DNA of 29,834 bases from a virus: IMG/VR virus record IMGVR_UViG_2889178456_000001; one strand, 5' to 3'. The notes beneath the pieces were generated by a model that saw nothing but the letters and a program-made list of their open reading frames with translations, had not been told where the DNA came from and did no database searches. Positions 5,474 through 27,386 of this stretch are shown here, in pieces; the stretch's first letter is position 1; the number at the start of each line of letters is the position of its first letter. Both the position numbers and the translations under genes were made by a program.

Positions 5474-5592
5474 GATATTTCCTATCTATTTTCGAGATCG
5501 ACCTCACTTGAAGGAAACCTCTAACCCACCGGGTAAATTGGTGGATTTCATAGATCAGCGCAACATGATGTTTATAAGCCTTGGAGAATAAT

Positions 5593-6768
5593 ATGAAAAA
5601 GCCAACAATACTCGATTCATTGAAACGTATAGTCGGAATTAGTGATCCCTATCAGGACATGACAATTTCAGCCCCAGAGGGGAAGGCATCCGCTAGACTG
5701 AAAGAAAAAATAGATATCTCCGCTCCAGAGGGAAAAGTTGCTGCTAGACTGAAGGAAGAAACCGCTCAAAAATCAAATAAACAGCGGGTTAATGTAACTG
5801 GCGCCATGCAAAGCTTGGAAAGCAGAAATTACATGATTTCAAAGCTTGCTGAGCAGAAGAGCTTAGCCGCAGAGTTGGGTGTCGAAGGTAAACTGAAAGA
5901 ACCAGATGTTCTAGAAGGCACTAGCCTTAGTATTAACAAACCCCTCCGTGCCACTGAAGCGAAATTTAACAACAGAAGCTTCACTTTGGAGCTTAAAACG
6001 GGACAAGTTGATACTATAAAGGTCAAACATCAAGGAACCTTGATATTCAATGAAGATAGCTTCTTCGTCGATGACGAATATGACACTATCGAACCGTTCC
6101 ATGAAACCGACCATCTAAACCTCTCGAAAGATGATCGAGCGAACCTTCTTACTAAGGTTGTGACCCCACTTATCGAAGGCCTTAGCTGCGACAATAGAAA
6201 CTTGCTCGCGGCTGTAAGACACAACGACACAATAATCTCTGAGGTCAGAGCAAATATCGCTGAAGAAAATCTGGTTGAATTTGACCCCTCCTTCAATGAG
6301 GTCGCGAATGCGGAGGTATCGTTGGAAGAGTTTTGCCTGAAGGTTGATGCGCTAGTCGATAACATAGAAAAGCTCAAAACGATGACACCTGAGGGAACCG
6401 GACAAAGCTTCGTCTACGAAATGGAAGATGGAACCGTTGAGCATTCTGTCCCAGGTAAACCAATATCGGTAGAATCTCGCAATACTGAAGCTGGTCGCCA
6501 GACCGCCCTAATGCTAGGGAATATCGAAACCGTGGTATACGGACACCGCATGGTCACGGAAGCAGGTGTGGATGAGGATGACTATGTTATTCTCTCCAAG
6601 TACACCCATGAAAGTGGCAGTGAGGACTATGGAAAGATACTGGCCACCGTAGTGAAGAAGGCGGAAGTCGCTATAGAAGAGAAGCGCATAGAGCTGGAAG
6701 CTTACCTCTCTTCGGCAATCCGTGCAGCTACTGCTGAGCTATCAACACCCGCGCAGCCAACGCCTTGA
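5593..6768 (+). CDS. Acidic hypothetical protein with an N-terminal 17-aa tandem repeat; tail AELSTPAQPTP
   Basis: Long ORF; GGAG RBS before ATG 5593 (MKKPT). Confidence 0.85.
   Translation: MKKPTILDSLKRIVGISDPYQDMTISAPEGKASARLKEKIDISAPEGKVAARLKEETAQKSNKQRVNVTGAMQSLESRNYMISKLAEQKSLAAELGVEGKLKEPDVLEGTSLSINKPLRATEAKFNNRSFTLELKTGQVDTIKVKHQGTLIFNEDSFFVDDEYDTIEPFHETDHLNLSKDDRANLLTKVVTPLIEGLSCDNRNLLAAVRHNDTIISEVRANIAEENLVEFDPSFNEVANAEVSLEEFCLKVDALVDNIEKLKTMTPEGTGQSFVYEMEDGTVEHSVPGKPISVESRNTEAGRQTALMLGNIETVVYGHRMVTEAGVDEDDYVILSKYTHESGSEDYGKILATVVKKAEVAIEEKRIELEAYLSSAIRAATAELSTPAQPTP
5665..5760 (+). repeat. In-frame tandem duplication with a 51-nt period
   Basis: ISAPEGKASARLKEK-ID-ISAPEGKVAARLKEE, with synonymous differences between the copies. 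Confidence 0.85.
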
Positions 6769-7822: not shown

Positions 7823-8371
7823 TTACATTCCTGGAACACGTCGCTGAGCACGACCGATGATCTCTGAGTGATCTAGACCAGCCTCTCTCTCGGCCGCCAA
7901 GATCATTTGGGCAGTTACCCTGACATCTACAGCCGGATCATGGTGACCAGTAAGGTCCAGATCAAGGAAATCTGCCATGCGCTTCAATCCGTACCCCGGT
8001 TGTCCGGGCCAGGCGTGCTTTGCCAAGGTCTGGCTGTTCTTCCAGCTCCACGGAGGCGACGTAACTTCATATTTTTCGCAAGCAGCCGACATAGCTTTGA
8101 AATCATCTGGACCATGACCGTAGACAGTGCAGCCGTAAAGACGCGGCCCAACAACTTCCAGAAATTGAGGAAACAGCGCCTGCCCTTTTAGGTCTTCATC
8201 TGTCAGGCCCAGCATCTTGGCGTTGAAGGCATCCAGGGGCTCCTCGGGATTAAGCAAAGACGACGAGGTTTGGATCTCGTCACCATTTACATAAGCGATG
8301 CCGACCCAGCAAATGCTTGCCGGGTTGCCGTTCGCTTTCTCAATGTCGATAACTGCAAATCTTGGGCTCAT
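7823..8371 (-). CDS. DEDDh (DnaQ-like) 3'-5' exonuclease; tail RRVPGM
   Basis: ExoI VIDIEKAN, ExoII GHGPDDF, ExoIII HHDPAVD; AAGGA RBS. Confidence 0.85.
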   Translation of the reverse strand: MSPRFAVIDIEKANGNPASICWVGIAYVNGDEIQTSSSLLNPEEPLDAFNAKMLGLTDEDLKGQALFPQFLEVVGPRLYGCTVYGHGPDDFKAMSAACEKYEVTSPPWSWKNSQTLAKHAWPGQPGYGLKRMADFLDLDLTGHHDPAVDVRVTAQMILAAEREAGLDHSEIIGRAQRRVPGM

Positions 8372-8380
8372 TGGATTTCC

Positions 8381-8698
8381 TTACGGGGATGGAGCTGCGG
8401 CAGGCTCTTCATACCATTCAGGCAGCTCATCAGTGGCGACCAAGCCAAATTCAGCGGGCTCATCAGGGGCTCCATTGGCGTGAACAACACTGTCCTCAAG
8501 GTCTTCTATGTCTTCCCAGGTTAGTTTATGCCATGCACGTTCATAGAGGGCATGCGCACGAATGATTTCCCCCTCCTCCCTATCGTAGACAAAGCGGGTT
8601 GGCATCAGCCTGTCACCATCATCCGTACCAATGAAGTGCTCCCAAGCCTCGCTGCCATCCATGTCCGGGTCTGCGATTAGGTATCTTTTGTCTGTCAT
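8381..8698 (-). CDS. Acidic hypothetical protein; tail EEPAAAPSP
   Basis: Probable start ATG 8698 (MTDKRY) after AGGAG; 105 aa. Confidence 0.75.
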   Translation of the reverse strand: MTDKRYLIADPDMDGSEAWEHFIGTDDGDRLMPTRFVYDREEGEIIRAHALYERAWHKLTWEDIEDLEDSVVHANGAPDEPAEFGLVATDELPEWYEEPAAAPSP

Positions 8699-8808
8699 CT
8701 GGAAAGTCTCCTGTTTCTCTCTCAACGAAATACGGCGGCTGGTTGCAAGTGTCCCGGCCGCCGTATTCATGTCTCATATCGCCCATAGTCGAGCGAAAAT
8801 ATGATCGC

Positions 8809-9933
8809 TTACATTGTCATGGTTGCTGCCTCAGGAAGATCCCGCTCTTCGCCCTTGTAGGCAAGCGTATCCATCCCGCAGGCTTCCTCACCTACGTCGG
8901 TGCGCACGCACTTATACACGGGCTGGTAGAGCGAACCACCGCGATTGGCATTCATATATTCCACCTCGATCAGGTCACCTGGTTTAGGGATATCTGCATT
9001 CGATGGGATCGTGACATTGCCCACATCAGTCCAGGCTCCGTCTGCATTCATCATCTCGAGGGAAACGCTGCGTTTCGTACCGTTTCCCCCCTTCACGCGA
9101 GCCGTGCAGCTCGCGATGAACTTGTACTTGCGGGCCTGACCGCCTGAGCTGGGACGACCCGGCTCGTAAACGCTGTCGGCATGACGCGCCACAAACCCTT
9201 CACCGCCAGACTTGAAGATCTCGTTGTGACGTTTTTCAAAGAACTCGGAAGCTGGCAGTGGAACCTCCACACGAAGTGCTTTCATATTTTGTCCTGCGGC
9301 GTAGTCGCGGAGGCCCTCTAAGATATCTGATCGCTCCGCAAAAGTGGCACTCTCGTCCATTTGGGGGTACTTGATAACATCGAAGATCACGATGTGATCG
9401 CCCATGTCCTCGCCATCAAGAATGACCTCTTCGCCGTCGCCAATGTCGAGAGCGAATTTTGCGATGTCATCAGCAATCTTCTTGTTAACGCCAACCTCCA
9501 GACCATTCCGGTTTGCGAACTGGATGCCCTCAGGTCCGATCACTACCCCGCGTCTCTCGCCATCATATTTTTCTCCGATCAGCCAATCGTCTCCGAAACC
9601 ACGTGCTTCATTAGCTTCGACTGTGTTCAATAGCTGTGGCCTGAATGCTGTCTTGCGGCCTGCATTTTCAGCCGAGGAGAAAACTTCACCGGAAATCTCT
9701 GTCGTATAGCCTTTTCGATCTCTCTTCTCTTTCAGGGCTTTGTTGTAGGCCTTCAGTGCTTCTTCGTATGGAACAGGCCCCTTGGTCTTCTCGCCCTCCC
9801 TCAGGGCCTTACCCCGTCTACCATGCTGAGTGAAAACACGGTATCCATCCCCATCTCGCTTTAGCTGCATGCTGTATTGCTTGTCAGACGATCCCTCAGT
9901 CAGAAATAGATCGATGCTCAGTTCTTCGCTCAT
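8809..9933 (-). CDS. WGR-domain ATP-dependent DNA ligase-like protein; tail PEAATMTM
   Basis: N-terminal WGR-like domain (SSDKQY...HGRRG...KRDRKGY); nucleotidyltransferase motifs EKYDGER, LDGE, FDV, EGFV, KYKF; C-terminal OB fold (IEVEY...LYQP...RTD). Confidence 0.85.
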   Translation of the reverse strand: MSEELSIDLFLTEGSSDKQYSMQLKRDGDGYRVFTQHGRRGKALREGEKTKGPVPYEEALKAYNKALKEKRDRKGYTTEISGEVFSSAENAGRKTAFRPQLLNTVEANEARGFGDDWLIGEKYDGERRGVVIGPEGIQFANRNGLEVGVNKKIADDIAKFALDIGDGEEVILDGEDMGDHIVIFDVIKYPQMDESATFAERSDILEGLRDYAAGQNMKALRVEVPLPASEFFEKRHNEIFKSGGEGFVARHADSVYEPGRPSSGGQARKYKFIASCTARVKGGNGTKRSVSLEMMNADGAWTDVGNVTIPSNADIPKPGDLIEVEYMNANRGGSLYQPVYKCVRTDVGEEACGMDTLAYKGEERDLPEAATMTM

Positions 9934-10064
9934 GACGTTCTCCTTTTGTTCTCTTTATAGATAAGCCTAATTTCGAAAGCTGCGCAATAAGTTTTAGCTA
10001 ACCTCGAAGCAAATATTTAAACATCTTCATGATAAGGTTGGGCATCAATAAACTGGATTTGATT

Positions 10065-10415
10065 ATGGATCATTATAATAAACTCACCCCGGCTGAAGCC
10101 GAACGCCTTGCAATGCTTTCTGAAGAAGCAGGTGAAATTGTACAAGCGGTATCAAAGATACTTCGTCATGGATACGCCAACTATCATCCTGACGATCCGA
10201 CTACCGACAACCGGGATCTCTTGTCCGCCGAAATCACAGATATGATGGCTGTTCTAAGCATCATGGAAAACAATAACGACCTCACCACTGACTTTGATCT
10301 GGACTTTGATGACAGCAATGAAAGCATCAAAAAAGCTATTGCAAAGAAGATGCGGTATGCTCGCCACCAGAACGATGAAACCATCAAGGCTGGTGACGCA
10401 ATAGAGTACAAATAA
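10065..10415 (+). CDS. MazG-like nucleotide pyrophosphohydrolase
   Basis: LSEEAGEIVQAVSKILRHG...AEITDMMA matches the EExxE...ExxD all-alpha NTP-PPase pattern; probable start 10065. Confidence 0.8.
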   Translation: MDHYNKLTPAEAERLAMLSEEAGEIVQAVSKILRHGYANYHPDDPTTDNRDLLSAEITDMMAVLSIMENNNDLTTDFDLDFDDSNESIKKAIAKKMRYARHQNDETIKAGDAIEYK

Positions 10416-10499
10416 GCTATCGACGCTATACCTGAGATATCAATAGTTGAAATCTCGTAAATTTCTACAAGTTAACTAAGATACTAGGAAAGATATCTA

Positions 10500-10886
10500 A
10501 TGACTTGCAGAACAGCGATCATTCATAGCGCTTCGGTCCTTCCGCACGGAAAGAACTTCACAATGCGACTGATCCTGCCCGGAGATATCTCGGGCGGGCC
10601 CTCCTCCGGGATCCATAATGGAGATCCTGTGGTGGAATTTTATGATGCAGACATGAAGGGAAGCTGTGTCGACGGAGAATGCTACGGAAGATTTGTAGCA
10701 GACTACTATATGACAACGCTAGAGAGCGCCTTTGAGAGGTCAGAGACAATGTCCCTTCATGATGCTGCCGGTGTATGGACCCTGGATGCAAACGCGACAG
10801 AAGATGCCTTCAAAACACTCGCGGATTGGAAGCTTGATTTGATTGAGTTCGATCCGGAACCCGCTGAAATGGGGATGTCTTTCTAG
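10500..10886 (+). CDS. Hypothetical protein of the PxVEFYD family; tail EPAEMGMSF
   Basis: AGGA RBS; GDPVVEFYDAD...YGRFVADYY motif; paralogue at 14895..15272. Confidence 0.8.
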   Translation: MTCRTAIIHSASVLPHGKNFTMRLILPGDISGGPSSGIHNGDPVVEFYDADMKGSCVDGECYGRFVADYYMTTLESAFERSETMSLHDAAGVWTLDANATEDAFKTLADWKLDLIEFDPEPAEMGMSF

Positions 10887-10957
10887 GTAATTAATTCAGC
10901 CTTCGTTTGTCAATTTGCAAAGCGGTGCATATCTAATATGCATTGGAGGAATTCCTT

Positions 10958-11263
10958 ATGCAAAACGAATTTGTCGAAGACGCACCATTTATTCATATCG
11001 AAGGCGATGACCTGAAAGAGAGTGACCTTTCATCTGGCACATATCGGAAGCCGGTAACGAACATCGTGCTAGCGAGAATCCCAAAGAAGGTTTGGAATTA
11101 CTTTGATGACGCTGCGGTTTCCGTAATTAAATCCTACAGGGCAGCTGATAAGAAAGTAGAACAGATCTTCGATGGCGAGATTGCCGGGGGACCGCTTGGT
11201 CGTATGATGTCCGCCTTGGGTCGCGACGTTGAAGTCAACAAACAACCTGGCATGGGTCGCTAA
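10958..11263 (+). CDS. Hypothetical protein; tail KQPGMGR
   Basis: GGAGG RBS before ATG 10958 (MQNEFV). Confidence 0.75.
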   Translation: MQNEFVEDAPFIHIEGDDLKESDLSSGTYRKPVTNIVLARIPKKVWNYFDDAAVSVIKSYRAADKKVEQIFDGEIAGGPLGRMMSALGRDVEVNKQPGMGR

Positions 11264-11407
11264 ACCTCTTGGGGATCGATCTCCATATATCTACAGGATA
11301 TTACGAGATCCACATGGTGCCTGGCGTAGCGGCTGCGCTATATGTTGCGTATTTCATACTACCTTACAAATAATAAATGAAACACAAAATTTAAGTGAGG
11401 CTTAATC

Positions 11408-12226
11408 ATGTCTGCTCCAGAAAATAATAGATCAGCAAGGGAAATTACGAAGGATTTTCGAACGCATAGAAAAATGCAGGCTACTCAAGAAAAGTTTCTG
11501 GAGGATAACATGGAACGGTATAGAAAAGCGTCCTCTACTCTTAATTCTTCAACACCCGAAGCAGCTCATGCTCTAAATCTCCAAGAGATTGTTGACCATG
11601 AAGCGGTTCTGGTTATGGAAACTATTGATAGAATGGAGCAGCATAGACAGCAAAAGGTCAACTCTTTTGAAGAAGGCATGCACCTAGAGGCTGTAAGCGA
11701 CGTCAATAAAAACCAGCACAAGAGATCCCGTGATAGATCAGCCCTAGACGATAACAGATCACTACTTAGAGATCACAATGGGGTCATTGTGCGGTCAAAG
11801 AAACAGAGTAATTTCTATGAGGACCAGAGTTTAATCGTAGCAAGATTGAGGAGCAAAATCGATGAATTGCTTAAAGACCAACCTCTAGGCTCAGACACTC
11901 ATAGTCGCTTGATGGAAAGGAGGCAATATTTTGAGAATACTAGGAAATATTGCCATGAGCAAGTGGACCACCATACTGGCGTCAAAAATGAAGCAAAAAA
12001 ATGGTCCGAAGAAGTAAAGAAAGAGATCTCCCATCTAAAGTCTGATGGATCGGTACGTGCCATGCTCAGTAAGTTCTTCGAAAACGTAAAAGAAACTTTC
12101 GAATCCGGTATCAGTGGAAAAGCCCGCCCTACCGTAATACTCTCTGGTGGTCGCCTAGGATTTGAAGTGGATCCGCATGAACCTGATGCGCCTCAGGGCC
12201 ACGGGAATAACCGTTCACCGAAATAA
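11408..12226 (+). CDS. Charged coiled-coil hypothetical protein (AT-richer than neighbours)
   Basis: 272 aa; GAGG RBS; helical and highly charged; low-complexity C-terminus. Confidence 0.8.
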   Translation: MSAPENNRSAREITKDFRTHRKMQATQEKFLEDNMERYRKASSTLNSSTPEAAHALNLQEIVDHEAVLVMETIDRMEQHRQQKVNSFEEGMHLEAVSDVNKNQHKRSRDRSALDDNRSLLRDHNGVIVRSKKQSNFYEDQSLIVARLRSKIDELLKDQPLGSDTHSRLMERRQYFENTRKYCHEQVDHHTGVKNEAKKWSEEVKKEISHLKSDGSVRAMLSKFFENVKETFESGISGKARPTVILSGGRLGFEVDPHEPDAPQGHGNNRSPK

Positions 12227-12291
12227 TATCTTAAGCGCTCCTGTGGTATTACCATTTCAGACATACGCGATTTTTCCACAGGAAACCCACG

Positions 12292-12444
12292 ATGTTTAAC
12301 AATCAGATGACCCCACAGGAAATTATCAAAGCTTGGCAGAGCCAGGCAAGGTCTGACCTCGAAGCAGCTAGAAGCATGCGCAATCATTGGCAGAGTGAAG
12401 TTGAGCGCCTTGAGAGGAAGATCGACAGCCTAGATGGCTCCTGA
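12292..12444 (+). CDS. 50-aa coiled-coil miniprotein (below the ORF-track cutoff)
   Basis: MFNNQMTPQEIIKAWQSQARSDLEAARSMRNHWQSEVERLERKIDSLDGS*; AGGA RBS; WQS occurs twice. Confidence 0.6.
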   Translation: MFNNQMTPQEIIKAWQSQARSDLEAARSMRNHWQSEVERLERKIDSLDGS

Positions 12445-12602
12445 GGTCGCTTCAGAGCCAAAGAAGGTCCCCAGCACCCAATCAAACAGCTCTTGGTGGT
12501 CTGAAAACCCTGGATGAGTATAACGGATAACACCATATAAACAGAATGTTCCCGGCATACTAAACATTGAGCGTTGGGAACATTGCCTACCTGATGAGAA
12601 TG

Positions 12603-12848
12603 TCAGCGCCGTGTCGGCACGAAGATCGGCTCCGGTCGCGGGCCGTAGGAATTGAAATCTTCCATAATAGCTTTGATTTCTTCCATCTTCTCTTCAGGAA
12701 CGTGTTCCCACATCGCCTCGATGGCATCTGCAAGCATCTCACCTTGCTTGCAAGAGAGAGGAGCATCGAGTTCCCGATCTTCGTCGATTTTGCCAACCAG
12801 AGGATGCCAAATACGCTCCCGGAGATAAATGCTGATGGAATTCGCCAA
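12603..12848 (-). CDS. Small hypothetical protein; tail PRPEPIFVPTRR
   Basis: 81 aa; GAGG RBS upstream; protein-like composition. Confidence 0.65.
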   Translation of the reverse strand: MANSISIYLRERIWHPLVGKIDEDRELDAPLSCKQGEMLADAIEAMWEHVPEEKMEEIKAIMEDFNSYGPRPEPIFVPTRR

Positions 12849-12991
12849 AATAAAATACCTCTATACTTAACCAAGCTCTGGATTTGCAGACACCATATTA
12901 GATCACAGCCATTAAGTCCATATCAATTATACGCAGCCACAATACAACTTTGAACTATCAATACTCAACCATTACCCCAAATTAAGATGAA

Positions 12992-13027
12992 ACTATAGGG
13001 AGCTGTAATACTTCAGCGCCCTATAGT
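12992..13027 (-). terminator. Hairpin/terminator after the 13038 gene
   Basis: ACTATAGGG-A-GCTG...CAGC-G-CCCTATAGT inverted repeat 10 nt past the stop. Confidence 0.6.
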
Positions 13028-13037
13028 AAGTGCACAT

Positions 13038-14153
13038 TTACTGTTTAGCACGATGAACCGTGATCACTTCACTGTTTCTACAGTCGAGAATACTATCGAC
13101 GCTATCTCTTACTCTCAACCATGTAGATTTACTGACCAGTCCACAATCGAACCAAAGACAGACATGGAATCCAAACGATCTCGCTTGAGATAACACCAAC
13201 TCAAGCGTTCCGATTCCAAATTCAATATCGGAGATCTTTACGATGACGGGCCTAGGCTCCCTAGAATTCCTTCCGAGATTTTGCACCCCAATAAGACCTG
13301 AATTTGAGTGCATATACATGCTTAATAGCCAGCTAAGCGCACTAAAACCGTTCCCAAATCCAGATTGCGGGCAGGAGAGACGCAAATCATCCGCCAGAGA
13401 TTTTGGGTGAACCCACCCATCCTGCGATAGGTTTACAAAATTTTCGTGTGTCTCTTCCAGCATCGAGATGTTACCGCCCAGAACGATGCTATGTTTCCTA
13501 TCGAAAACATCGCGGCCCAATTTTTTGCCCGCTTTGTGGTCGCGTGTCTGGGTAAAGACACCCTTCTGATCTATAAGCACATCATTCTCAGTTAGGGCAT
13601 GTGGATCATCAATGGTAAACGTATAGGGATCTTTCGGGAGGTAGCTTGCCAACTTAGCGATAGAGACCCTTGCAGTTTCGCACGTATCCCATGAAGCCAT
13701 CTTCTTCTCAGCCTCTAGAAGCTGCCCCAAGGTAAGATTTCTAAATAGGCAGTTTTGGTCGAACATCATGCGAATACTATTGCCTTCAACCTTAGCAAGG
13801 ATGTCACCTAGATGCCTTGCTTGTTGGCTACTTAATATTTCGCCTGTAGATCTTTCCTTCCAAAACTTAAAGAGAGCCACGATTTCTCGTGTATAACTGC
13901 TTTCAAATAGAACCCTGTCGTATCTGATTGGAGGCCCTGAAGAAGGTGATGGCGTATCTACAGAGCGCTTCTCCTTGAGGCTTAATGCGCTTCTTAGATG
14001 CCCCCAGCTTTCGAAACCGTGAATTTTGGAGATCAGCTCGAGACATTGACTGTGACCCAGGGGAGTGGTCCCCTTCAGTGCATAGGTTAGGCGCCGGGCC
14101 TGTGATTTTGCAATGTCTAGAGTTTCAGGCGTACCTGGTATTGTATGGTTCAT
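13038..14153 (-). CDS. 'Glyoxalase superfamily' N-terminal helical domain fused to a divergent C-terminal domain
   Basis: AKSQARRL...LGHSQCLELISKIHGFESWGHL is the typical N-domain signature. The C-terminal VLSQARSFGFHV resembles the QARS motif of VirD4/HerA-like ATPases, but no intact Walker A is visible. Confidence 0.7.
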   Translation of the reverse strand: MNHTIPGTPETLDIAKSQARRLTYALKGTTPLGHSQCLELISKIHGFESWGHLRSALSLKEKRSVDTPSPSSGPPIRYDRVLFESSYTREIVALFKFWKERSTGEILSSQQARHLGDILAKVEGNSIRMMFDQNCLFRNLTLGQLLEAEKKMASWDTCETARVSIAKLASYLPKDPYTFTIDDPHALTENDVLIDQKGVFTQTRDHKAGKKLGRDVFDRKHSIVLGGNISMLEETHENFVNLSQDGWVHPKSLADDLRLSCPQSGFGNGFSALSWLLSMYMHSNSGLIGVQNLGRNSREPRPVIVKISDIEFGIGTLELVLSQARSFGFHVCLWFDCGLVSKSTWLRVRDSVDSILDCRNSEVITVHRAKQ

Positions 14154-14161
14154 GATAAATT

Positions 14162-14335
14162 TCCTTCATGTGAAGGGGTTCAGTTGGAAGCTCGACCCAT
14201 GACAACCTAAACCCCATTATGAAAGGAGATTTAATGGTATAAGAGTATGCGCATATTCTTCTTAGGCAGATGCCCGGGCCGGAAAGGCTATGCGCGGCAC
14301 AAGATCAATGTACCGCGCAGCAATAATAAATTCAA
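14162..14335 (-). promoter_or_regulatory. Promoter plus structured leader of about 150 nt for the 13038 gene
   Basis: TTGAAT(14335-14330)-N17-TACATT(14312-14307); inverted repeat 14291-14301/14309-14319; palindrome 14241-14260; long stem 14162-14227 covering the GAAGGA RBS. Confidence 0.55.
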
Positions 14336-14394
14336 TACCTAGATGAATAGATTCTCAAGAAGAAGATCGTGAGACTAGACGCACAAGCAATAAT

Positions 14395-14763
14395 TCAGGC
14401 CGCGTCTTGTGCCTCCATCAGCGCCTTTTGGAATACTGCCGGAGAGATCGGCTCAGAGAACCCAATCGCGTCCAGATTAATGTATGTACAATTCTTCTTT
14501 AGAGAGAAGGCGCAGAACATCGCACGGTTGAGCTGGGTCGGGAAGTCCTTACTCGATGGAGTAAAGCTCACCGCAACGGAGTTAGCCCAGCGGTCAAAAT
14601 AACCGTCGCCGATATCCAGCTGAGGTTTGTCAGTGTGCGTCAGGTAGCGGACTTGTCGACCCAAATACCTACCATACAGGTGCGGACACTCACCGTTATC
14701 AAAGGTGCCGACACGGTCACAGTTGCGAACTAGCCAGGCGAGAATTGGATCGGTAATGTTCAT
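14395..14763 (-). CDS. Hypothetical protein
   Basis: 122-aa ORF with an AT-rich upstream region; DIGDGYFDRWANS motif-like stretch. Confidence 0.7.
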   Translation of the reverse strand: MNITDPILAWLVRNCDRVGTFDNGECPHLYGRYLGRQVRYLTHTDKPQLDIGDGYFDRWANSVAVSFTPSSKDFPTQLNRAMFCAFSLKKNCTYINLDAIGFSEPISPAVFQKALMEAQDAA

Positions 14764-14894
14764 AATAATACATTTCTATTGATGGTTCGTTATGTTTATA
14801 ATCATAACTAACTTTGATATCAATAACTAAATATCGCCTAGGCCATGGTTAATCACCATCAATCTATGGTGGCCACCTGACAGTCGAAGGTCTC

Positions 14895-15272
14895 CTACAT
14901 AGCCATCCCAGGCGTCTGATCATTCTCATAGGTTGCCTGAACCTCACGCAGCATACCAAGAAGGCGACTGCACTGTGACTTGCTGAGTCCCCACTGAGGT
15001 ACATTTACAGTAGTCGATAGATCGATGCCTGCTTTGGCCTCTTCGAGGCGATCTATGAGGTCACCTAGAGGCTCTGACAGCAACTTGTGGCCGTACGCGT
15101 TGCCATCGCGGTCAACATGCCCTCTGTAGTCGGCATCAAATATCTCAACGAGAGGCTCACCTTCTACCTGTTCACTCATGGACATCATTGTAGCGGCCGT
15201 CCACATTCCTGGCTCCACAACACGAGCCGTCAGCTTTTTGCCGAGCTCACGCTTAAAATTCATCTGGTTCAT
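14895..15272 (-). CDS. Hypothetical protein of the PxVEFYD family (paralogue of 10500); tail DQTPGMAM
   Basis: Probable start ATG 15272 (MNQMNF); GEPLVEIFDADYRG...DGNAYG. Confidence 0.75.
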   Translation of the reverse strand: MNQMNFKRELGKKLTARVVEPGMWTAATMMSMSEQVEGEPLVEIFDADYRGHVDRDGNAYGHKLLSEPLGDLIDRLEEAKAGIDLSTTVNVPQWGLSKSQCSRLLGMLREVQATYENDQTPGMAM

Positions 15273-15402
15273 TCCGACACCCTTATTCGCTCTTATGCAG
15301 ATAAGGTTGCTCTGAACCTGAAATCCGCAACTCGCGCTTCTCGGTCTTTTCATATTTCGGAAATGAACTATCATGCCCTCTCAGGAAGAGAACGAGGACA
15401 GC

Positions 15403-15699
15403 ATGATCAAATCAGAGTTGGTAAGTCGCATCGCAGAAGAGTTCGCGCTTTCACGCAAAGTGTCCGAACGTGCGGTAAGTCAGATTTTCGACGAGATCAT
15501 TGAGCAGATGGCATCTGGTGGGCGTGTCGAAATTAGAGACTTTGGTGTCTTTGGCACATCGGAATATGATTCCAGCGTAGGACGGAACCCACGCACAGGA
15601 GAGAGTGTAGAACTCCCCGCCCGAACGCTTCCTAGGTTCAAGGCGGGAAGAGGGTTGAGTAAACGGCTCAATCAGGACTTCGAAAAAGAGAACTCTTAA
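15403..15699 (+). CDS. ihfB: Integration host factor beta / HU-family nucleoid protein
   Basis: MIKSELVSRIAE N-terminus, RVEIRDFGVF, GRNPRTGE arm, PRFKAG; GAGGA RBS before 15403. Confidence 0.8.
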   Translation: MIKSELVSRIAEEFALSRKVSERAVSQIFDEIIEQMASGGRVEIRDFGVFGTSEYDSSVGRNPRTGESVELPARTLPRFKAGRGLSKRLNQDFEKENS

Positions 15700-16364
15700 G
15701 CCACACCGGGAGACGACGATGGTCCCGTTAGCCTATCGTACTCCGGATCATCTGGTGACAGAGACTCGCTTAAATCGAAATCCTTGCATCCCCTATAGAA
15801 GCCATCTTTGATTTCTTCCCAGTTTTGGAGCAATCTTTCTTCACGCATCTTCGAGGGTGGCGTGTAGCCTTCCTGAAACACAGCAATCAGATCAGCAGGC
15901 ATGGCTGGGTTCGCTTCGTCCGCAAAAGCTTGCTGGATGATGGACCACTGGATATCCGCATCACGAAGTGCAATGCGCTCTTCCAGACTGCTCCGTGTGA
16001 TTTCAATCATCTCGCCCAGATCGTTCTCGATGGATACCAGGTGACCAGCCTGCATTTCGGGTAGCTTCGACAAGTCCAGGGGATCGAACTGAAGATCTTT
16101 AAGGGGCTCATCGGTGGGTCCGAAAGCAACGTTCCCACTTGATAGGGCTGCCTGATACTTGTGCTTCAGCTCGTCCCACATCTGGATAATCACTTCATCG
16201 CTGAATCTCACAAGGTGAGACATGTGAGTTTGTAGGGCCTGAACCCCAGGATTGCGTACACCTAGGCTGATCGCATGGTTTGCCATATGTGTGATTACAT
16301 CACTTTTTGGGACGCGGATCTTTTCCCCATCAAAGGTCTTAATATCAAGTTGTGTATCGGTCAT
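15696..16364 (-). CDS. Hypothetical protein with two repeated domains; tail GPSSSPGVA
   Basis: 222 aa; the halves IKTFDGEKIRVPKSDV...IIQMWDELKHKY and IENDLGEMIEITRSSL...LLQNWEEIKDGF resemble each other. Confidence 0.8.
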   Translation of the reverse strand: MTDTQLDIKTFDGEKIRVPKSDVITHMANHAISLGVRNPGVQALQTHMSHLVRFSDEVIIQMWDELKHKYQAALSSGNVAFGPTDEPLKDLQFDPLDLSKLPEMQAGHLVSIENDLGEMIEITRSSLEERIALRDADIQWSIIQQAFADEANPAMPADLIAVFQEGYTPPSKMREERLLQNWEEIKDGFYRGCKDFDLSESLSPDDPEYDRLTGPSSSPGVA

Positions 16365-16532
16365 AGTTTTCTCAAATTTATATGGTTACGCAGTGATATT
16401 TACTCATAGATCACGAATGTATCCAGTATTTCAGTTGGCAACCAAGACCCTTAAGGTTCGCTATATGCTGAGCTTGAACCAGATAACTACCTATGCTTGT
16501 ATGCGGGCTCAATATTCAATTCTGGTGAACAC

Positions 16533-16829
16533 ATGTTAAAACGAACGGCTTTTGTTATCTCCTTTTCCTTTTTCGTCCCCATATTAGCAAACGCGGCTGA
16601 TCTCTCCCCTGCGCACATATCGCAGTCTTGCTTTGCATTGCCGGTTTCCAAAACGAAGGCCTTCATAAGCTGCTCAGACGCCCGCCTGACGTACACGCTG
16701 GCTGACTGCGAGGTATCGCTGGGCGGAGACCGAAAAATGCGCTGTAGGGGCTCTAGGAGCAAAGACGTGAGAGCGACCTGCATTGCCAGAGAAAGTGACG
16801 ACAGGATGCTCCCCCTCACCTGCAAATAA
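16533..16829 (+). CDS. Small secreted Cys-rich protein
   Basis: Sec signal MLKRTAFVISFSFFVPILANA|A; six Cys in the mature part. Confidence 0.65.
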   Translation: MLKRTAFVISFSFFVPILANAADLSPAHISQSCFALPVSKTKAFISCSDARLTYTLADCEVSLGGDRKMRCRGSRSKDVRATCIARESDDRMLPLTCK

Positions 16830-16936
16830 GGGCGCGAGACAAAATTCTGATCTTGTTGCAAAAATGTATTATCATGTATTGACATGGTTAGTGGGAGCAT
16901 GGTTACATGGATAGGTAATCAAGGGAAACTTATTTC

Positions 16937-17116
16937 ATGTCCACTACCCATACTTCCAGCTACAAGACCAATGTTTCGGCCGGTATCACAGCCTTGACTG
17001 GAGATGCTGCGGCCTTTGAGACGCAGGTGAATGCATTCTTTTCTAAACATCCTGATGCAGAAGATCTGCTGACAGCAAACGAAGCCGCAGAGCAGATCGT
17101 GCTCGGTGTGATCTAA
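16937..17116 (+). CDS. 59-aa miniprotein (below the ORF-track cutoff)
   Basis: MSTTHTSSYKTNVSAGITALTGDAAAFETQVNAFFSKHPDAEDLLTANEAAEQIVLGVI*; AAGGGA RBS, TTGACA at 16879, terminator directly downstream. Confidence 0.7.
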   Translation: MSTTHTSSYKTNVSAGITALTGDAAAFETQVNAFFSKHPDAEDLLTANEAAEQIVLGVI

Positions 17117-17133
17117 GAAGAACCCTCCAAACG

Positions 17134-17170
17134 AAAAGATGGCCCTCTGATAAACAGAGAGCCATCTTTT
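17134..17170. terminator. Bidirectional intrinsic terminator
   Basis: AAAAGATGGC-C-CTCTG-ATAAA-CAGAG-A-GCCATCTTTT between the miniprotein gene and hns. Confidence 0.8.
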
Positions 17171-17221
17171 GCTTGCATCATTGACGCTCAACAGGACGCC
17201 TATTGATCCTATAAGCGCAGT

Positions 17222-17548
17222 TTAGATAGCGAGTTCTTCTACGTTCTTACCCGCTTCTTCGTGCTCTCTGATCCAAGTCGGCTTGCGACCCTTACCAGTC
17301 CAGGTTTTCTCAGGGTTTTCCGGATGGCGATACTTAGGCTCACCTTTGGTCCCCTTCGTTTTGCTCAAGGAGCCATCGCCCATTAGGTCTTTGAGGGACA
17401 TGCCGTGCTCAGCCGCAGCAGCTTTAGCAGCGTCCAGGGCTTCTTTGCGGCGGCGTGCTTCAACTGTCTTCAGAGCCTTGTCGACATCCTTGCGGTGCGC
17501 GACCAGTTCATCGTGAGACATCTTGTCGAGATTAATGTCGTTCGCCAT
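17222..17548 (-). CDS. hns: H-NS family nucleoid protein (alphaproteobacterial HvrA/Spb type)
   Basis: N-terminal coiled coil INLDKMSHDELV; DNA-binding motif PKYRHPENPEKTWTGKGRKPTW; AAAGGAG RBS. Confidence 0.92.
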   Translation of the reverse strand: MANDINLDKMSHDELVAHRKDVDKALKTVEARRRKEALDAAKAAAAEHGMSLKDLMGDGSLSKTKGTKGEPKYRHPENPEKTWTGKGRKPTWIREHEEAGKNVEELAI

Positions 17549-17738
17549 TGAGTTCTCCTTTGCTCGTTACAGCGTTTCTATAAGCCTTAAAAAAGGGTTA
17601 ATGCAAAGGATGTCAACTTCCTTTTGAAGTTTTTTACAATTCTTTATCCGATTTTCTGGTATCTATGTGAAAAAGGACAGCATTTTTTCTCGTAACTTTC
17701 AGACATAAATCGCACGTTAACTTGTGTAAGGTAGTCTT

Positions 17739-17810
17739 ACCTCTGAGCCTGAGGCTCTATTGTGTGTGTCCGAGAAGGGGAGTGAGGTGAAAGCTTTACT
17801 CCCCTTTTTC
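17739..17810 (+). ncRNA. Candidate small RNA or attenuator divergent from hns
   Basis: Small hairpin GAGCC-TGA-GGCTC, G/U-rich linker TTGTGTGTGT, then a 13-bp terminator stem with a U-tract; no plus-strand ORF upstream. The 5' end is approximate. Confidence 0.35.
17775..17809 (+). terminator. Strong intrinsic terminator
   Basis: AAGGGGAGTGAGG-TGAAAG-CTTTACTCCCCTT-TTT; the two non-Watson-Crick pairs are G-U wobbles on the plus strand. Confidence 0.75.
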
Positions 17811-17874
17811 GTCTCTTTCATAAAGTTCGCGTACATGAAGCTTAGCGACATCCCAGCATAGGTGAGTTGAGGTA

Positions 17875-18765
17875 ATGAGTTCTGAGATATCTAATTTCGA
17901 GACCCTTGATGGTTTTGTTGGCAGCGACAGCATCGGTGTCTCTATACGCAGTGACGCGACTCCAATCCCGACATCGGCTGAGCGCATTCGGGATAAAATC
18001 AAGTCAGTAAACGAAAAATCACGCACGGTCGGGAAGAAGATCGGGGAGATCTCTATCAAGGCCTATGTAATGACGACAGTCATCCTTATGAGCGGGAGTG
18101 CTGGCCTCGTATATGATCGCATGGCCAACCCTAACTATCAGGAAGTTTCCCCATCAGGTGCTCTTTTGGAAGCTGCAATTGCCGTTGGAGGGCAGCTTGG
18201 TGTTGTGGCACTTCGGGAAGCTGAGCAGATGAATTCTCGTGAGAGTAGAAGTGAAGATTCCTCCACATCTCTTCCTGTTCCCAAAAAAGATTTCGACTTA
18301 GGCCTGCTAAATCTCATTTCAAGAGAGGGTAGCGAAATTATTACTGGCCCAATTGGCGCAAGCCTTATGGCCTATGGCATGACCTATTCTACTGAAGGTG
18401 GCTGGTCCCAGACCGTGGATCCCACGCCTCTGGCTGCCTCGCTGCCAACGCCTGAGGATATCGCCACTCTAATGTACGACACTGCTTCCTATATGGGCGT
18501 TGCTTCAGATCACGAGCGGGTCATTAATGTCATTGGCAGTACACTTTCCCAGGTTATCAATATGAGCCAGCTGTGTGGCAATACCGTAGACTGTCCACCA
18601 GTGGCGCACCCGATCAAGACGACTGAGGGCAATGGCATGGTTGTCGTATTCCAAGGTGAGGCGCGATCATTCTCCGATTTCAGTGAGGGCGTTTTGTATC
18701 TGGAAGAAAGCGGCTGGACCGAAGCCCACGACGCGTCATGGGATGCTTCCCCAGCGCTGCGCTGA
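17875..18765 (+). CDS. Single-pass membrane hypothetical protein; tail WDASPALR
   Basis: 296 aa; GAGGT RBS; TM AYVMTTVILMSGSAGLVY. Confidence 0.8.
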   Translation: MSSEISNFETLDGFVGSDSIGVSIRSDATPIPTSAERIRDKIKSVNEKSRTVGKKIGEISIKAYVMTTVILMSGSAGLVYDRMANPNYQEVSPSGALLEAAIAVGGQLGVVALREAEQMNSRESRSEDSSTSLPVPKKDFDLGLLNLISREGSEIITGPIGASLMAYGMTYSTEGGWSQTVDPTPLAASLPTPEDIATLMYDTASYMGVASDHERVINVIGSTLSQVINMSQLCGNTVDCPPVAHPIKTTEGNGMVVVFQGEARSFSDFSEGVLYLEESGWTEAHDASWDASPALR

Positions 18766-18905
18766 TACCTTCCAAAAATAATTAAATTTATCCTTGATTA
18801 CTGAAATCTTCCTGTTATCAGTCCTTTCAGAAGATCATTTATTCTTGTGGGTTGCGCCGGTTGCGGCAAATTTAACAAGGAAAGCAAAACACTTTGAGGC
18901 AGATC

Positions 18906-19466
18906 ATGGATATTGAGACAGTAACCCAACCATATTTTTTCACACGTGACGACCTGATGGGTCAGATCAACGACCGCAACTGCAAGACGCGCGCGGTAGG
19001 CAACTACCCAGAAGGCACAACTGTTTTGATGCCACTCGAGCACGGCGGATGTGCCCTCATGTTCCTACGCGAAGACGAGGAAGTTGCTGAGTTCATCTGC
19101 GCAGGTAATTTCGGAAGCTGGCTCAAGACATATGCAGAAGCCTGGATCGTGAACACAGAAACCCACTATGAGGCTGATGGCGGCCCCGAGGTGGCACTGA
19201 CCGCTGAGATCTTCCAGGTCGCATGTGAGAATGGCCTGTCTGTCTGCATGGGTGGAAACGAAAAGCCCCTGCTGATGGTGATGTCCGAGCAGGAAAGCTC
19301 ATTTGGAACCAGCACAGTCCATGTTGAAGCATTCGATATCAGCGCGATCAACGATGTCGTAGGCGAGCAGGTTGTTGATTTCGATACTCTGCCTTCTCCC
19401 GAGGCCGATGCGGAGTTTTCAGCCGCCTTCGATACTGAGCCTGAGCAGATGGGTTTCGGCTTCTAA
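18906..19466 (+). CDS. Very acidic hypothetical protein; tail EPEQMGFGF
   Basis: GAGG RBS before ATG 18906 (MDIETV); followed by a terminator. Confidence 0.8.
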   Translation: MDIETVTQPYFFTRDDLMGQINDRNCKTRAVGNYPEGTTVLMPLEHGGCALMFLREDEEVAEFICAGNFGSWLKTYAEAWIVNTETHYEADGGPEVALTAEIFQVACENGLSVCMGGNEKPLLMVMSEQESSFGTSTVHVEAFDISAINDVVGEQVVDFDTLPSPEADAEFSAAFDTEPEQMGFGF

Positions 19467-20800: not shown

Positions 20801-21586
20801 TCAGGGGCTTGGAGACGTAGCTTCCTGATCGGACACACGCTTATCCATCAGCTCTTTGATAGGAGCTGTTAGATCTTCCATCTCATCTTCCCGAATTGGC
20901 ATTTTGCCACCCTCAGGAATTCTCTTCAGGCTATCGAAGTCCGGCTTCGGATAGGCCAATTCTAGCATGCGGTTGTAAACCTTCTCGAAGAGAACGGCAT
21001 CACAGATGAATGTAAAATCAGGCTTCGACTTCCTGTAGGGCTTGTACTGAAGCGCAAAAGGCTCACCCTCGTAGTAGACAACACGAGTCCCGACTGGCGT
21101 ATCGGAACAGAGCCATGCGCTCACCGATTTCGTGGTAAACCAATCCCGCAGCCCAGCTTCGGATGGCAGATACTCGAATTCAGTTCCATCACGGAAGCCC
21201 ATTGCTTCGGCAAGATAGTAGATATCAGGTTCACCTTCGACTTCCTGGTCCACTAGCGCCTCGAGAACCTCAGGCACTTCAGGGTTTCCTGCTTTGGCGT
21301 AGGCGATCAGCTCATGGTACGCGGGGCGATCCTCGGCCACCAGATATTCGTGGCCATCCTCACCTTCGACAAAGCGCCACTCGATATTATCGAAGACGAA
21401 ATGGGTAATGGAAGAACTCTCAATCACCTGCAAGTCGTGCTTCTTGCCATGCTCGATGTAAGCCGCCCAATCAGCGACAGGATCGCCAGTCATGAAGCGC
21501 ACTTCATTGTCCGGACCCTTGAGAACGATGCCTCTATAGGTATCTCGGACGCCTTCATCATAATCAATCGAAAGGTTATACGTCAT
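20801..21586 (-). CDS. Phage/plasmid-type hypothetical protein, probably two domains; tail DQEATSPSP
   Basis: AAGGA RBS; the C-terminal half carries WLCSDTPVG...RKS, a WxCTDTxVG-like motif recalled from phage hypotheticals. Confidence 0.8.
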   Translation of the reverse strand: MTYNLSIDYDEGVRDTYRGIVLKGPDNEVRFMTGDPVADWAAYIEHGKKHDLQVIESSSITHFVFDNIEWRFVEGEDGHEYLVAEDRPAYHELIAYAKAGNPEVPEVLEALVDQEVEGEPDIYYLAEAMGFRDGTEFEYLPSEAGLRDWFTTKSVSAWLCSDTPVGTRVVYYEGEPFALQYKPYRKSKPDFTFICDAVLFEKVYNRMLELAYPKPDFDSLKRIPEGGKMPIREDEMEDLTAPIKELMDKRVSDQEATSPSP

Positions 21587-22510: not shown

Positions 22511-23392
22511 TTATGGGGTCGGGGAAGATGGCTCTTCATCCATCTCATCGCGCTCGTAGATGCGCCGACCGACTTCATTGATCTCGCTCATAAGGTCGAC
22601 AGAGAAATCGTCGGAGGCCATCATCTGAGGCGCATACTGGATTGCCATAGCATCCATATTGGTTTGCATGATCATCATCTCAGCCGCCGCTTCGATCATG
22701 TCCTTGAAACGAGGCTCATCGATATCATGGCCATTTTGAAGGCTTACAGTGATGATACCCATAATGCTCGCTGGCGATGGCCCTGTTTGCCCATGAACGC
22801 GCACCGAACCACCCGAGCTTGCACTGGCAAACCAGAAGTCCGCAGATTTGCTTGCGGGGTCGGTCACCTGTTCAAACGGTTTAAGCTCCGCCCGCTGCAA
22901 GCAATAGGCCCGGATTTCTTCCGCCATTTGTGTTGGTGTCTTTTTCTTGCCAGGCATGAAGGGCGCGTACTTGGATTTCACCATCAACTGATAGGCCTTC
23001 TCATGCATTGCCATGAGACCCACAGAAGCATCTTCCCGATGAAGGTGGTTCCGGTACATAGGATGGTTATCTGGAAGCTTTAGCTCTCCTTTGGACACCG
23101 CCCTAAACACGGCCTCCAAGGTAAGCTCATCATCATATTCTTCTTCCCAGAACTCAGACAGCTCCATAAGAAAACGATCAATGCGCCAGTCGCCCTCCTC
23201 ATCACGAGGATAGAAGTCGGTGTAGTCCTCGTAACTCATCGGGATCGGAAAGCTGATGGGCGCCCAGCTATCAGTCGTATGCAGGAACCCGGAGGGGTGT
23301 TTGGTCTCGCTCACCGATTCACGCAGGAAGATCACCCGCACAGGCTGGAAGCTAAGAATCGGCGTACGCGTGATCGCACATGTCATATTCAT
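22511..23392 (-). CDS. Hypothetical protein; tail DEEPSSPTP
   Basis: 293 aa within a minus-strand operon; N-terminal TCAITRTPI motif. Confidence 0.8.
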   Translation of the reverse strand: MNMTCAITRTPILSFQPVRVIFLRESVSETKHPSGFLHTTDSWAPISFPIPMSYEDYTDFYPRDEEGDWRIDRFLMELSEFWEEEYDDELTLEAVFRAVSKGELKLPDNHPMYRNHLHREDASVGLMAMHEKAYQLMVKSKYAPFMPGKKKTPTQMAEEIRAYCLQRAELKPFEQVTDPASKSADFWFASASSGGSVRVHGQTGPSPASIMGIITVSLQNGHDIDEPRFKDMIEAAAEMMIMQTNMDAMAIQYAPQMMASDDFSVDLMSEINEVGRRIYERDEMDEEPSSPTP

Positions 23393-23412: not shown

Positions 23413-24159
23413 TTATGGCGCTGGGGGCGTGAGTTCCACTTCAGGCTCAATGGACGCGAATACATCAAATTTTGCAGCAGCATCTTCGCTCTTTGGGCGG
23501 CAAATATTGAGATAGGCATCCTTCGCCTCTAGAGGGCTCACACCACGAACTTCCGTCACAGTCATCCTGCTTTCACGGAACATGTTTGCTGCCTTTTCTT
23601 GAGCCGCGATGCCAAGGTCGATGTCGGCTCGGGAATGACCCGCCGCTTCCATGTTGTTCGCCCACTCTCGCATATAGGCCATATCATCATTGATGAAGAC
23701 GCTTGCAGGGATCAGGAGCTTCTTACTCTTGCGAACCTCAACCATGTCATAGAAAGCGAACTGCTCTGTTTTGGGATCAAGCATCAATTCGGTGCCATCG
23801 AGCCAGGTTTCTTTTTCCATTTCGGATGGAGCCCAGACATCGCAGAGCCCATGACGCATCCAAAGTAGAGAGGTGAACCGGTTAATGCCATCAAGCAAAT
23901 ACGTATTGTGACCAGACGAGGGAAGGAAATTCAGCGGCCCCATAGACGGGAGAACACAGACACCGCTTTTGTCTTCGTCCTTAGGATGCCAGACAACGAC
24001 GTTGCCCATCGGGTAGCCCTTAAAGATGTTCTCGGCAAATGAGATTACATCACTTTTCGACCACGAGTATGGCTCCTGAAGATCTGCGGGAATGACTTCC
24101 GCACTGCTGATGTCGTCAAGGACTTCTTTTAGGCTACATGTGAAGAACTTGGGTTTCAT
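23413..24159 (-). CDS. DUF262 (GmrS/ParB-like) domain protein with degenerate motifs; tail EVELTPPAP
   Basis: IPADLQEPYSW (normally QR), IFKGYPMGNVVVW, YLLDGINRFTSL (normally DGQQR), YLNIC (normally FxxIN). Confidence 0.75.
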   Translation of the reverse strand: MKPKFFTCSLKEVLDDISSAEVIPADLQEPYSWSKSDVISFAENIFKGYPMGNVVVWHPKDEDKSGVCVLPSMGPLNFLPSSGHNTYLLDGINRFTSLLWMRHGLCDVWAPSEMEKETWLDGTELMLDPKTEQFAFYDMVEVRKSKKLLIPASVFINDDMAYMREWANNMEAAGHSRADIDLGIAAQEKAANMFRESRMTVTEVRGVSPLEAKDAYLNICRPKSEDAAAKFDVFASIEPEVELTPPAP

Positions 24160-26750: not shown

Positions 26751-27386
26751 ATGACCAAAACTCGCTACGAACCCGGTAAAGAATACGCCTTTGTGGACGT
26801 GAAATATGAGCGCCCAGAGCCAATGTTCACCAGCCTTTATGTGCCTTGGAGCGACACCCTCAAAGAGATCGTTGTCCGCCGCATGAAGTGTGTAGAGCAC
26901 CATCGAGTACCCGGTGATTGGGATGACGAGCTAAAATATGATGGCTTCATTTTCCAAAACACCGAGGGTGGCGAGGAACGCTGGTACAACCAGTACCCGC
27001 GTGCCAGCTATGGTCAAACAACGGACGACGAGAACTGGAAGATCAAGGTTGCCGAGGATCGCAACGGCGTCAAACTCAGCGAAGAAGCGGCCGATAAGTA
27101 CAGCGACACTGAGATCCTGTGGGGCGTCCAAGATGCTGCGAAGTATCTAGACATCATTCATAATGGGGTGAACCCTCGCCATAGCAGAGATGAACTTGAA
27201 CCAGATCAAAAGGTTGCACTGCAAGGATTCTATGATCAGCTGAAGCAAGCCGTTGAGGAAAAAATGGGATGCCAGTTTGAGCTTGAAGAATTGATCGTTC
27301 AGCCTATCGATAAGAGTAAGCCGCCCCGTCACACTGGCATCCTTCACCACAAGATGAGTGAACCGGCGCCTACGCCTGCGCCCTAA
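26751..27386 (+). CDS. Hypothetical protein; tail SEPAPTPAP
   Basis: AAGGA RBS; motif WYNQYPRASYGQ. Confidence 0.85.
   Translation: MTKTRYEPGKEYAFVDVKYERPEPMFTSLYVPWSDTLKEIVVRRMKCVEHHRVPGDWDDELKYDGFIFQNTEGGEERWYNQYPRASYGQTTDDENWKIKVAEDRNGVKLSEEAADKYSDTEILWGVQDAAKYLDIIHNGVNPRHSRDELEPDQKVALQGFYDQLKQAVEEKMGCQFELEELIVQPIDKSKPPRHTGILHHKMSEPAPTPAP

Follow-up and report, generated by a model that had tools for sequence, protein, structure and literature searches.

Proteins encoded by the stretch of DNA analysed here (IMG/VR record IMGVR_UViG_2889178456_000001; the window, meaning the whole 29.8 kb, with ~50% GC and ~41 plausible proteins encoded) often end in a short tail. A sequence-only reading had sorted these tails into one class ending Pro-x-Pro (PxP) and a second class ending in Met/Phe-Gly-rich motifs, and had proposed either one degenerate signal or two. 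We find that the two classes are, on comparison of their sequences, well supported as one degenerate C-terminal short linear motif, and that this tag occurs on many mutually unrelated, mostly soluble accessory proteins of marine Rhodobacterales megaplasmids. By analogy with known secretion signals, and with about even confidence, we read the tag as a translocation signal of the Dot/Icm kind ('E-block plus hydrophobic -3') that would serve type IVB conjugation. The window is bases 80,344-110,177 of an 819,584-base contig in NCBI assembly GCA_017743915.1, and plasmid and phage collections returned no near-identical DNA for the region.

The tails are far more frequent in the window than chance would provide. 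With the frequency of the same tripeptide inside the same window proteins as the expectation, [PMLF]-[GSATEDQN]-[PMLF]-stop ends 11 of 41 proteins where 0.81 were expected (P = 3e-10), the same number as had been counted for a joint consensus of both classes. Six of these are PxP and the other five end PGM, MTM, MSF, MAM and FGF. The second class alone ([MLF][GSAT][MLF]-stop) supplies 4 of the 41 ends, with 0.31 expected (P = 2.5e-4), and one more protein ends P-G-M. The motif was defined post hoc on this window, and we therefore checked it on independent DNA, where it replicated.

All six Met/Phe-Gly tails quoted by the sequence-only reading are present, and five fit acidic-[P/M/L/F]-small-[P/M/L/F]-stop. 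The ligase, a protein of 374 amino acids (aa) with WGR and ATP-dependent DNA ligase domains by Pfam (8809..9933, minus strand), ends in GEERDLPEAATMTM (...EAATMTM, at 8812-8853); this tail runs 14 residues beyond a conserved QLKFK-type sequence and is indeed appended past the fold. A 128-aa protein of no known family (10500..10886, plus strand) ends in FDPEPAEMGMSF at 10848-10883, and its paralogue (14895..15374, minus strand; 125 aa in the database gene call) ends in YENDQTPGMAM at 14898-14930. These two had been singled out as relatives among the tailed proteins, and an all-against-all BLAST of the window proteins connects them (E = 3e-5). In the same comparison, the 10500 protein has the tail region alone in common (E = 0.19) with a 190-aa near-orphan protein (18894..19466, plus strand; its start was earlier placed at 18906) that ends in FDTEPEQMGFGF at 19428-19463. 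Two tails are less typical. The 182-aa DEDDh exonuclease (7823..8371, minus strand), whose identity Pfam supports as RNase_T, ends ...RRVPGM at 7826-7843, a P-G-M ending in a basic, not acidic, context that makes it a weak member by sequence. A 101-aa protein (10958..11263, alternative start 10943, plus strand) ends NKQPGMGR at 11237-11260, with two extra residues after P-G-M; as had been remarked, it does not fit at -1, and on its sequence its membership is doubtful. A similar overrun occurs at the ligase of another locus (L005), which ends PGMEL. In the window, RRVPGM and PGMGR lack the acidic patch of the proposed consensus. The tail codons are unlike one another and the downstream DNA is unrelated, so the likeness is one of proteins, selected as such. 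A repeated DNA element, a terminator or an attC-like site that happens to encode the tails is ruled out by the same differences.

The ligase family shows directly that the classes replace one another. A search returned 1,133 homologues, and we classed the endings of the closest 44 (at least 43% identity) and of 76 more distant ones. Where named, the closest 44 come from Salipiger, Pseudosulfitobacter, Paracoccus and Roseibium, and all of them run 12-20 residues past the conserved QLKFK end of the fold in acidic tails. They end PGM, PGF, PGL, PSL, PSF, MSL, MSM, LSL, MDM, LGM, PAM, MAP, PTP or P-x-G-P (e.g. PDGP). Writing Phi for Met, Leu or Phe here and below, this amounts to 16 PxPhi, 10 PhixPhi, 2 PhixP and 1 PxP, the remainder being mostly P-x-G-P. 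The tail is absent from distant ligase homologues and from those of phages and of chromosomal metagenome-assembled genomes (MAGs); the more distant ligases end a few residues past the fold, with -AA in 18 of 76 versus 0 of the 44 close orthologues.

Orthologous pairs on two megaplasmids gave a similar picture. Between the Paracoccus and Gemmobacter megaplasmids there are 154 reciprocal best-hit pairs, and in 14 of them both sides are tailed where 4.4 would be expected (P = 1e-6), showing that the presence of the tail is conserved. Its class is kept in 9 of the 14 and switched in 5, among the class-swap pairs being DDGPGF/EDGPGM, MDEPGF/DEDGPSP, SLGMGM/PEDPEP and ACTPGF/DPSPAP. A class change is also seen in a window protein, an acidic protein of 129 aa (8381..8770, minus strand): it ends EEPAAAPSP, and EAPSPGL is the ending of its homologue from the Paracoccus megaplasmid. 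A logo of 134 tails summarizes what is held constant. At positions -5 to -8, 30-43% of residues are Asp or Glu, compared with 13% in the background, and across -1 to -7 Lys and Arg account for 0-2%; position -4 is small, -3 is Pro or less often Leu, Phe or Met, -2 is small or Glu, and -1 is Pro (57%), Leu (19%), Phe (15%) or Met (8%). Pro is 10- to 14-fold enriched at both -1 and -3. The tag as a whole comprises ~8-12 disordered residues after the folded domain.

These data bear on whether PxP and Met/Phe-Gly tails could instead be two separate signals, read by different adaptors and merely alike in appearance. PhixPhi endings, strong in the window, are weak on its relatives (9/527, P = 0.015; 2/413, not significant), and the majority of doubly tailed pairs keep their class, as two signals would predict. 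Against this, every class occurs within the one ligase orthologue family, over a third of the pairs switch, P-G-Phi hybrids bridge the classes, and both share an acidic, Lys/Arg-free lead-in and the same distribution over replicons. We consider two signals very improbable. Since the endings interchange within orthologous families, in the ligases as in the megaplasmid pairs, and both classes are enriched on the same replicons, of the two earlier options it is the single degenerate signal that stands.

The remaining PxP tails of the window end a 395-aa protein (5581..6768, plus strand; PAQPTP), a 261-aa protein (20801..21586, minus strand; EATSPSP), a 293-aa protein (22511..23392, minus strand; DEMDEEPSSPTP), a 248-aa GmrSD_N-like protein (23413..24159, minus strand; EVELTPPAP) and a 211-aa protein (26751..27386, plus strand; SEPAPTPAP). 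In the middle of this tail-rich zone lie an H-NS-like gene (17222-17548, minus strand) and an HU-like gene (Bac_DNA_binding; 15373-15699, plus strand). Both products are untagged, the LAI at the end of the H-NS-like protein being a chance match to a narrow regular expression.

To place the tag on replicons, species-representative genomes were scanned with a ligase profile, which gave 50 loci. The three best lie on plasmid unnamed1 of Paracoccus sp. ME4 (535 kb, complete), contig 2 of Gemmobacter caeni (447 kb) and scaffold 2 of Salipiger mucosus (702 kb), each referred to below as C2. Genes on these relatives were called by a GC3 heuristic, so that the counts are approximate and the stop codons exact. 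A broad form of the motif ends 75 of 527 proteins (14%) on the Paracoccus plasmid and 59 of 413 (14%) on Gemmobacter C2, compared with 6 of 220 on a stretch of the Paracoccus chromosome, 4 of 172 on Gemmobacter C1 and 0 of 103 on Gemmobacter contigs with classical VirB4/VirD4 genes; the chromosomal stretches and type IVA contigs of these two genomes are thus 0-3% tagged. Enrichment is weaker in Salipiger, with 17 of 408 on C2 (10 of 128 in the ligase-containing 80-200 kb bins) and 4 of 289 on the type IVA plasmid C5. The tail-rich relatives have 61-68% GC, and the window element 50%.

This distribution makes it difficult to regard the tails as acidic, Pro-rich disordered extensions without a dedicated reader, arising from composition or stop-codon drift or kept for solubility. 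Such an origin would fit short, variable tails and the abundance of Pro, Ala and Gly in high-GC genomes. Yet the same pattern is found at 50% and at 61-68% GC, is missing from the chromosomes of the same hosts, excludes Lys and Arg, enriches Pro so strongly at just two positions, and is conserved in its presence between orthologues. We give little credence to an origin of this kind.

Membrane-like segments are depleted among tagged proteins (8-9% versus 25-26%). Most carriers have no Pfam family. Those with an annotation mostly act on nucleic acids or are proteins of the conflict type: the ligase, RNase_T and MYG1 exonucleases, a Pnkp-like kinase-phosphatase-ligase (RNA repair), UvrD, HipA, NADAR and PcfJ. 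Envelope sorting signals (LPXTG, PEP-CTERM, PGF-CTERM) were considered and rejected: no helix follows the motif, hydrophobic segments are depleted, and cytoplasmic enzymes are among the carriers.

The tail-rich relatives from Paracoccus, Gemmobacter and Salipiger all carry an IncI/Dot-Icm-like type IVB system with a coupling protein of the DotL type. On the Paracoccus ME4 megaplasmid this system has DotH/IcmK (E = 1e-55), IcmL/DotI, DotG/IcmE, IncI1 TraQ- and TraO-like proteins, a DotC-like TraI lipoprotein, a DotB-like ATPase, a VirB4/DotO-like ATPase, DsbC-like proteins and a 1,124-aa Sog-like primase. Its 1,180-aa coupling protein matches both NCBIfam TrbC and Legionella DotL (PDB 6sz9_A, E = 3.5e-105), and the cluster is collinear in Gemmobacter. 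DotH is present exactly once in each of the Paracoccus ME4, Gemmobacter caeni and Salipiger mucosus genomes, always on C2 together with the tailed ligase. In Pseudosulfitobacter the contigs with the ligase, DotH and the coupling protein have one and the same length, 528,791 bases, and the ligase replicon apparently has type IVB genes too. When ligase endings were surveyed against DotH, the tail was found in 4 of 4 Rhodobacterales genomes with DotH, whereas none of 33 DotH-negative genomes and none of 10 viral contigs had it, in line with a ligase tail that is confined to related large plasmids. A classical VirB4/VirD4 system was rejected as reader, there being no such genes in Paracoccus ME4 and no tag enrichment on the Gemmobacter and Salipiger contigs that have them. 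A search of the megaplasmids for relaxase PF03432 found none.

The coupling-protein gene of Paracoccus ME4 (L059:4240-7782), the genes upstream of it and the type IVB cluster have further features. Directly after the Walker A motif GxxGxGK, the coupling protein contains an intein-like insert of ~285 residues (residues ~157-441) with a match to the gp41-1 intein (PDB 6riz, E = 4.7e-5), and all 32 aligned family members have His-Asn-Thr at residues 440-442. Directly upstream of the gene (C2 121,920-123,780; L059:1920-3780) are a sigma-32-like factor and a NADAR-family anti-phage-like protein, whose own end, QAAFSF, is a second-class tail. Within the conserved type IVB gene cluster sit phage tail-fibre-like proteins with Peptidase_S74, Gp34_trimer and BppL_N matches (Paracoccus C2 242,930-248,618, i.e. 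L065:2930-8618, and L138:13548-15134), which may be mating adhesins.

In the reading that we favour, the tag would be a recruitment and translocation signal for the coupling complex (the DotL-type ATPase and partners) of the megaplasmid-encoded IncI/Dot-Icm-like system, and tagged proteins would be sent to the recipient cell during mating, as SogL primase is by IncI1. The tag would then be related, in shorter form, to the Legionella signal ('E-block plus hydrophobic residue at -3'). The lower-GC window element uses Met or Phe more often where its high-GC relatives have Pro. Two properties are consistent with such a signal. As in Dot/Icm signals, the tail lies outside the fold, past QLKFK in the ligase, and on unrelated soluble proteins. 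Also as in Dot/Icm signals, a low-charge Asp/Glu block lies upstream of the end. On the hydrophobic residue at -3/-4 and the non-polar end the two classes differ: the second class has Met, Phe or Leu at -3 and -1, and the majority class has Pro, not the classical residue, at both. A bolder extension, to which we lean slightly less than to the signal itself, is that 14-27% of tail-zone proteins on Rhodobacterales type IVB megaplasmids are injected with the DNA, including repair enzymes, toxin kinases and dozens of orphans.

Several observations weigh against this reading. The tag's acidic block does not reach the length of the Legionella E-block, and Pro does not count among the classical hydrophobic residues. 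Among the genes next to the coupling protein and the core cluster, searches by Pfam, NCBIfam and PDB sequence revealed no receptor like DotM or TrbA; DotM is poorly conserved, with 23% identity between DotM and TrbA (PMC5802825), and a receptor of this type may for that reason have been missed. The window's own 820-kb contig returned no match in the DotH search and none among the best 120 of 526 coupling-protein matches, and ~64 kb to the right of the window are without type IVB genes. The suggestion that a coupling protein reads the tails is plausible: the related tail-rich replicons all carry a DotL-type protein, and these searches of the window contig gave none. A DotH cluster at NCBI that was tried as the window contig's own has 62% GC and represents a different lineage. 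Moreover, the tail-rich replicons are all one plasmid lineage, and the association of tag and secretion system may therefore reflect shared descent, and the counts on relatives depend on the heuristic GC3 gene calls.

The distribution adds two further points on that side. Three Rhizobiales DotH plasmids are without tag enrichment (1/77, 1/90 and 2/104), so the tag is no general property of type IVB plasmids, and should the tag be read by the secretion system, it would be a signal specific to one lineage. The tails are also clustered in zones and not spread over whole replicons. On the window contig, a ~100-kb tail zone stops near record position 126 kb (window coordinate ~45,600), and the ~75 genes called beyond that position have no tail. 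Because of this clustering, the prediction of a replicon-wide enrichment is too strong as worded, while enrichment across the related megaplasmids is borne out. The untagged genes at record 126-173 kb (L145, L175-L177) include three DUF4262 genes, a LuxR-type regulator, a 1,302-aa UvrD-like helicase, a DarT toxin with an HTH partner, a transposase and a histidine kinase. PLSDB held no close Rhodobacterales relative of the ligase or of DotH. The sole non-Rhodobacterales genomes in the survey with both genes, a Burkholderiaceae MAG and Ramlibacter sp. AN1133 (L014 and L043), have ligases with long acidic tails (...QDQPRA, ...ERPRMRA), which may represent another dialect of a signal of this sort.

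The main alternative to a translocation signal is that the tail is a C-terminal degron or protease-adaptor tag, which would make its carriers short-lived substrates of host ClpXP, ClpAP, Lon or FtsH, perhaps through a plasmid-encoded adaptor. If the host encoded the reader, this would account both for tags on a window contig where no type IVB system was found and for the untagged Rhizobiales type IVB plasmids. The distant ligases point in the same direction with their frequent -AA endings at the same position (many -LAA, -KAA or -AAA). These ends of the WGR-ligase homologues (P0045-P0120, L007-L049) we take to resemble ssrA/ClpX-type degrons, and for this reason the ligase C-terminus looks like a site where regulatory tails arise often. 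However, none of the close ligases has the -LAA/-AA end of ssrA/ClpX C-motif-1, and acidic, Pro-ending tails are no known class for any of the four proteases. It would also be odd for a host protease signal that chromosomal proteins of the same hosts are almost never tagged. Type IVA plasmids in the same cells lack the tag as well. ClpP and the beta clamp (dnaN) are chromosomal only in the megaplasmid genomes, with one dnaN per genome and no plasmid-borne copy of either. We judge a degron unlikely; were it correct, the tails would constitute a new plasmid-specific proteolysis code.

The single dnaN bears on another possibility, that the tail docks enzymes on a replication or repair hub, as a beta-clamp-binding motif or an acidic peptide like the SSB tip. 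The beta clamp binds QL[SD]LF or QLxLxL, and the C-terminal tip of SSB is DDDIPF. A full HMMER search found only three relatives of the 18894 protein; the sole close one (P0320, 68% identical) ends QLSLF and a 36% identical relative ends EFSFM, and the end of the 18894 protein itself, Q-M-G-F-G-F, fits Q-Phi-x-Phi-x-Phi. DNA enzymes such as the ligase, the exonucleases and UvrD are among the carriers as well. Nevertheless, the beta-clamp pattern is met only by the 18894 protein and its orthologue, Gln is missing at -5 and -6 from most tails (the 134-tail logo has none), which more often than not end in Pro, and most carriers have no known family or link to DNA metabolism. The one dnaN of each genome, on the chromosome, is a further point against docking. 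Docking on such a hub is very improbable. In overall form, the tag does share with these peptides its shortness, C-terminal position, acidic lead-in and alternating hydrophobics, down to one orthologue with exactly QLSLF, and differs from them in the lack of Gln and dominance of Pro in most tails and in carriers that extend beyond DNA enzymes.

Few of the proteins that conjugation systems send along with DNA are known, and the signals by which they are chosen are diffuse. A translocation tag that is short and recognisable would predict dozens of candidate substrates per plasmid, in culturable bacteria. We found no description of this tag in the literature, and to our knowledge no consensus tail signal has been described for IncI1 substrates. 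If the translocation reading is true, I-type conjugation would gain its first consensus signal for sending proteins, protein delivery between bacteria would gain a compact tag, and the orphan genes of marine megaplasmids would amount to an injected establishment and anti-defence kit.

Protein transfer of this kind has precedents among conjugative plasmids. The relatives of the window resemble IncI1 plasmids (R64, ColIb-P9) in their matches to TrbC, TraO, TraQ and TraI and in a large Sog-like CHC2 primase that adjoins the core genes, and they differ in that this Sog-like primase is untagged and in a coupling protein of ~1,200 aa with an intein-like insert. IncI1 plasmids send hundreds of SogL primase molecules to recipients (PMC8406263), and from F-type plasmids, too, a set of plasmid-encoded proteins passes over (PMC8406263, PMC11288057). 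With F-type conjugation the shared idea is the co-transfer of many plasmid-encoded maintenance and anti-stress proteins; the F system is of type IVA, and its signals are positively charged or hydrophobic, without consensus.

The closest comparison is with the Dot/Icm systems of Legionella and Coxiella. A hydrophobic residue at -3 and a Glu-rich E-block matter for Legionella Dot/Icm translocation (PMC3052360). The receptor for the signal is DotM, a member of the DotL-DotM-DotN coupling complex (PMC3052360, PMC5802825, PMC7280309); it recognises acidic, Glu-rich tails, and transport is lost when the final Leu of the consensus peptide is replaced by Glu (PMC5802825). Compared with these signals, the tag is shorter (acidic at -5 to -8), more stereotyped (P/Phi-x-P/Phi-COOH) and dominated by Pro. 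It is carried by conjugative-type megaplasmids of free-living marine bacteria rather than by an intracellular pathogen, and homologues of DotM, IcmS and IcmW were not recognised. Like the Dot/Icm signals, it forms the very C-terminus of soluble proteins that are unrelated to one another and mostly orphans (hundreds in Dot/Icm): an acidic stretch of low pI comes first, small residues come next, and non-polar residues occupy -3 and the final position. As there, it occurs, on the related megaplasmids, together with a DotL-type coupling protein and a DotH/DotG/DotI/DotC-like core. If the translocation reading holds, effector-style secretion would already be elaborate in ordinary plasmid conjugation, and the tag would form an evolutionary bridge from plasmid conjugation to the effector-rich Dot/Icm systems of pathogens.

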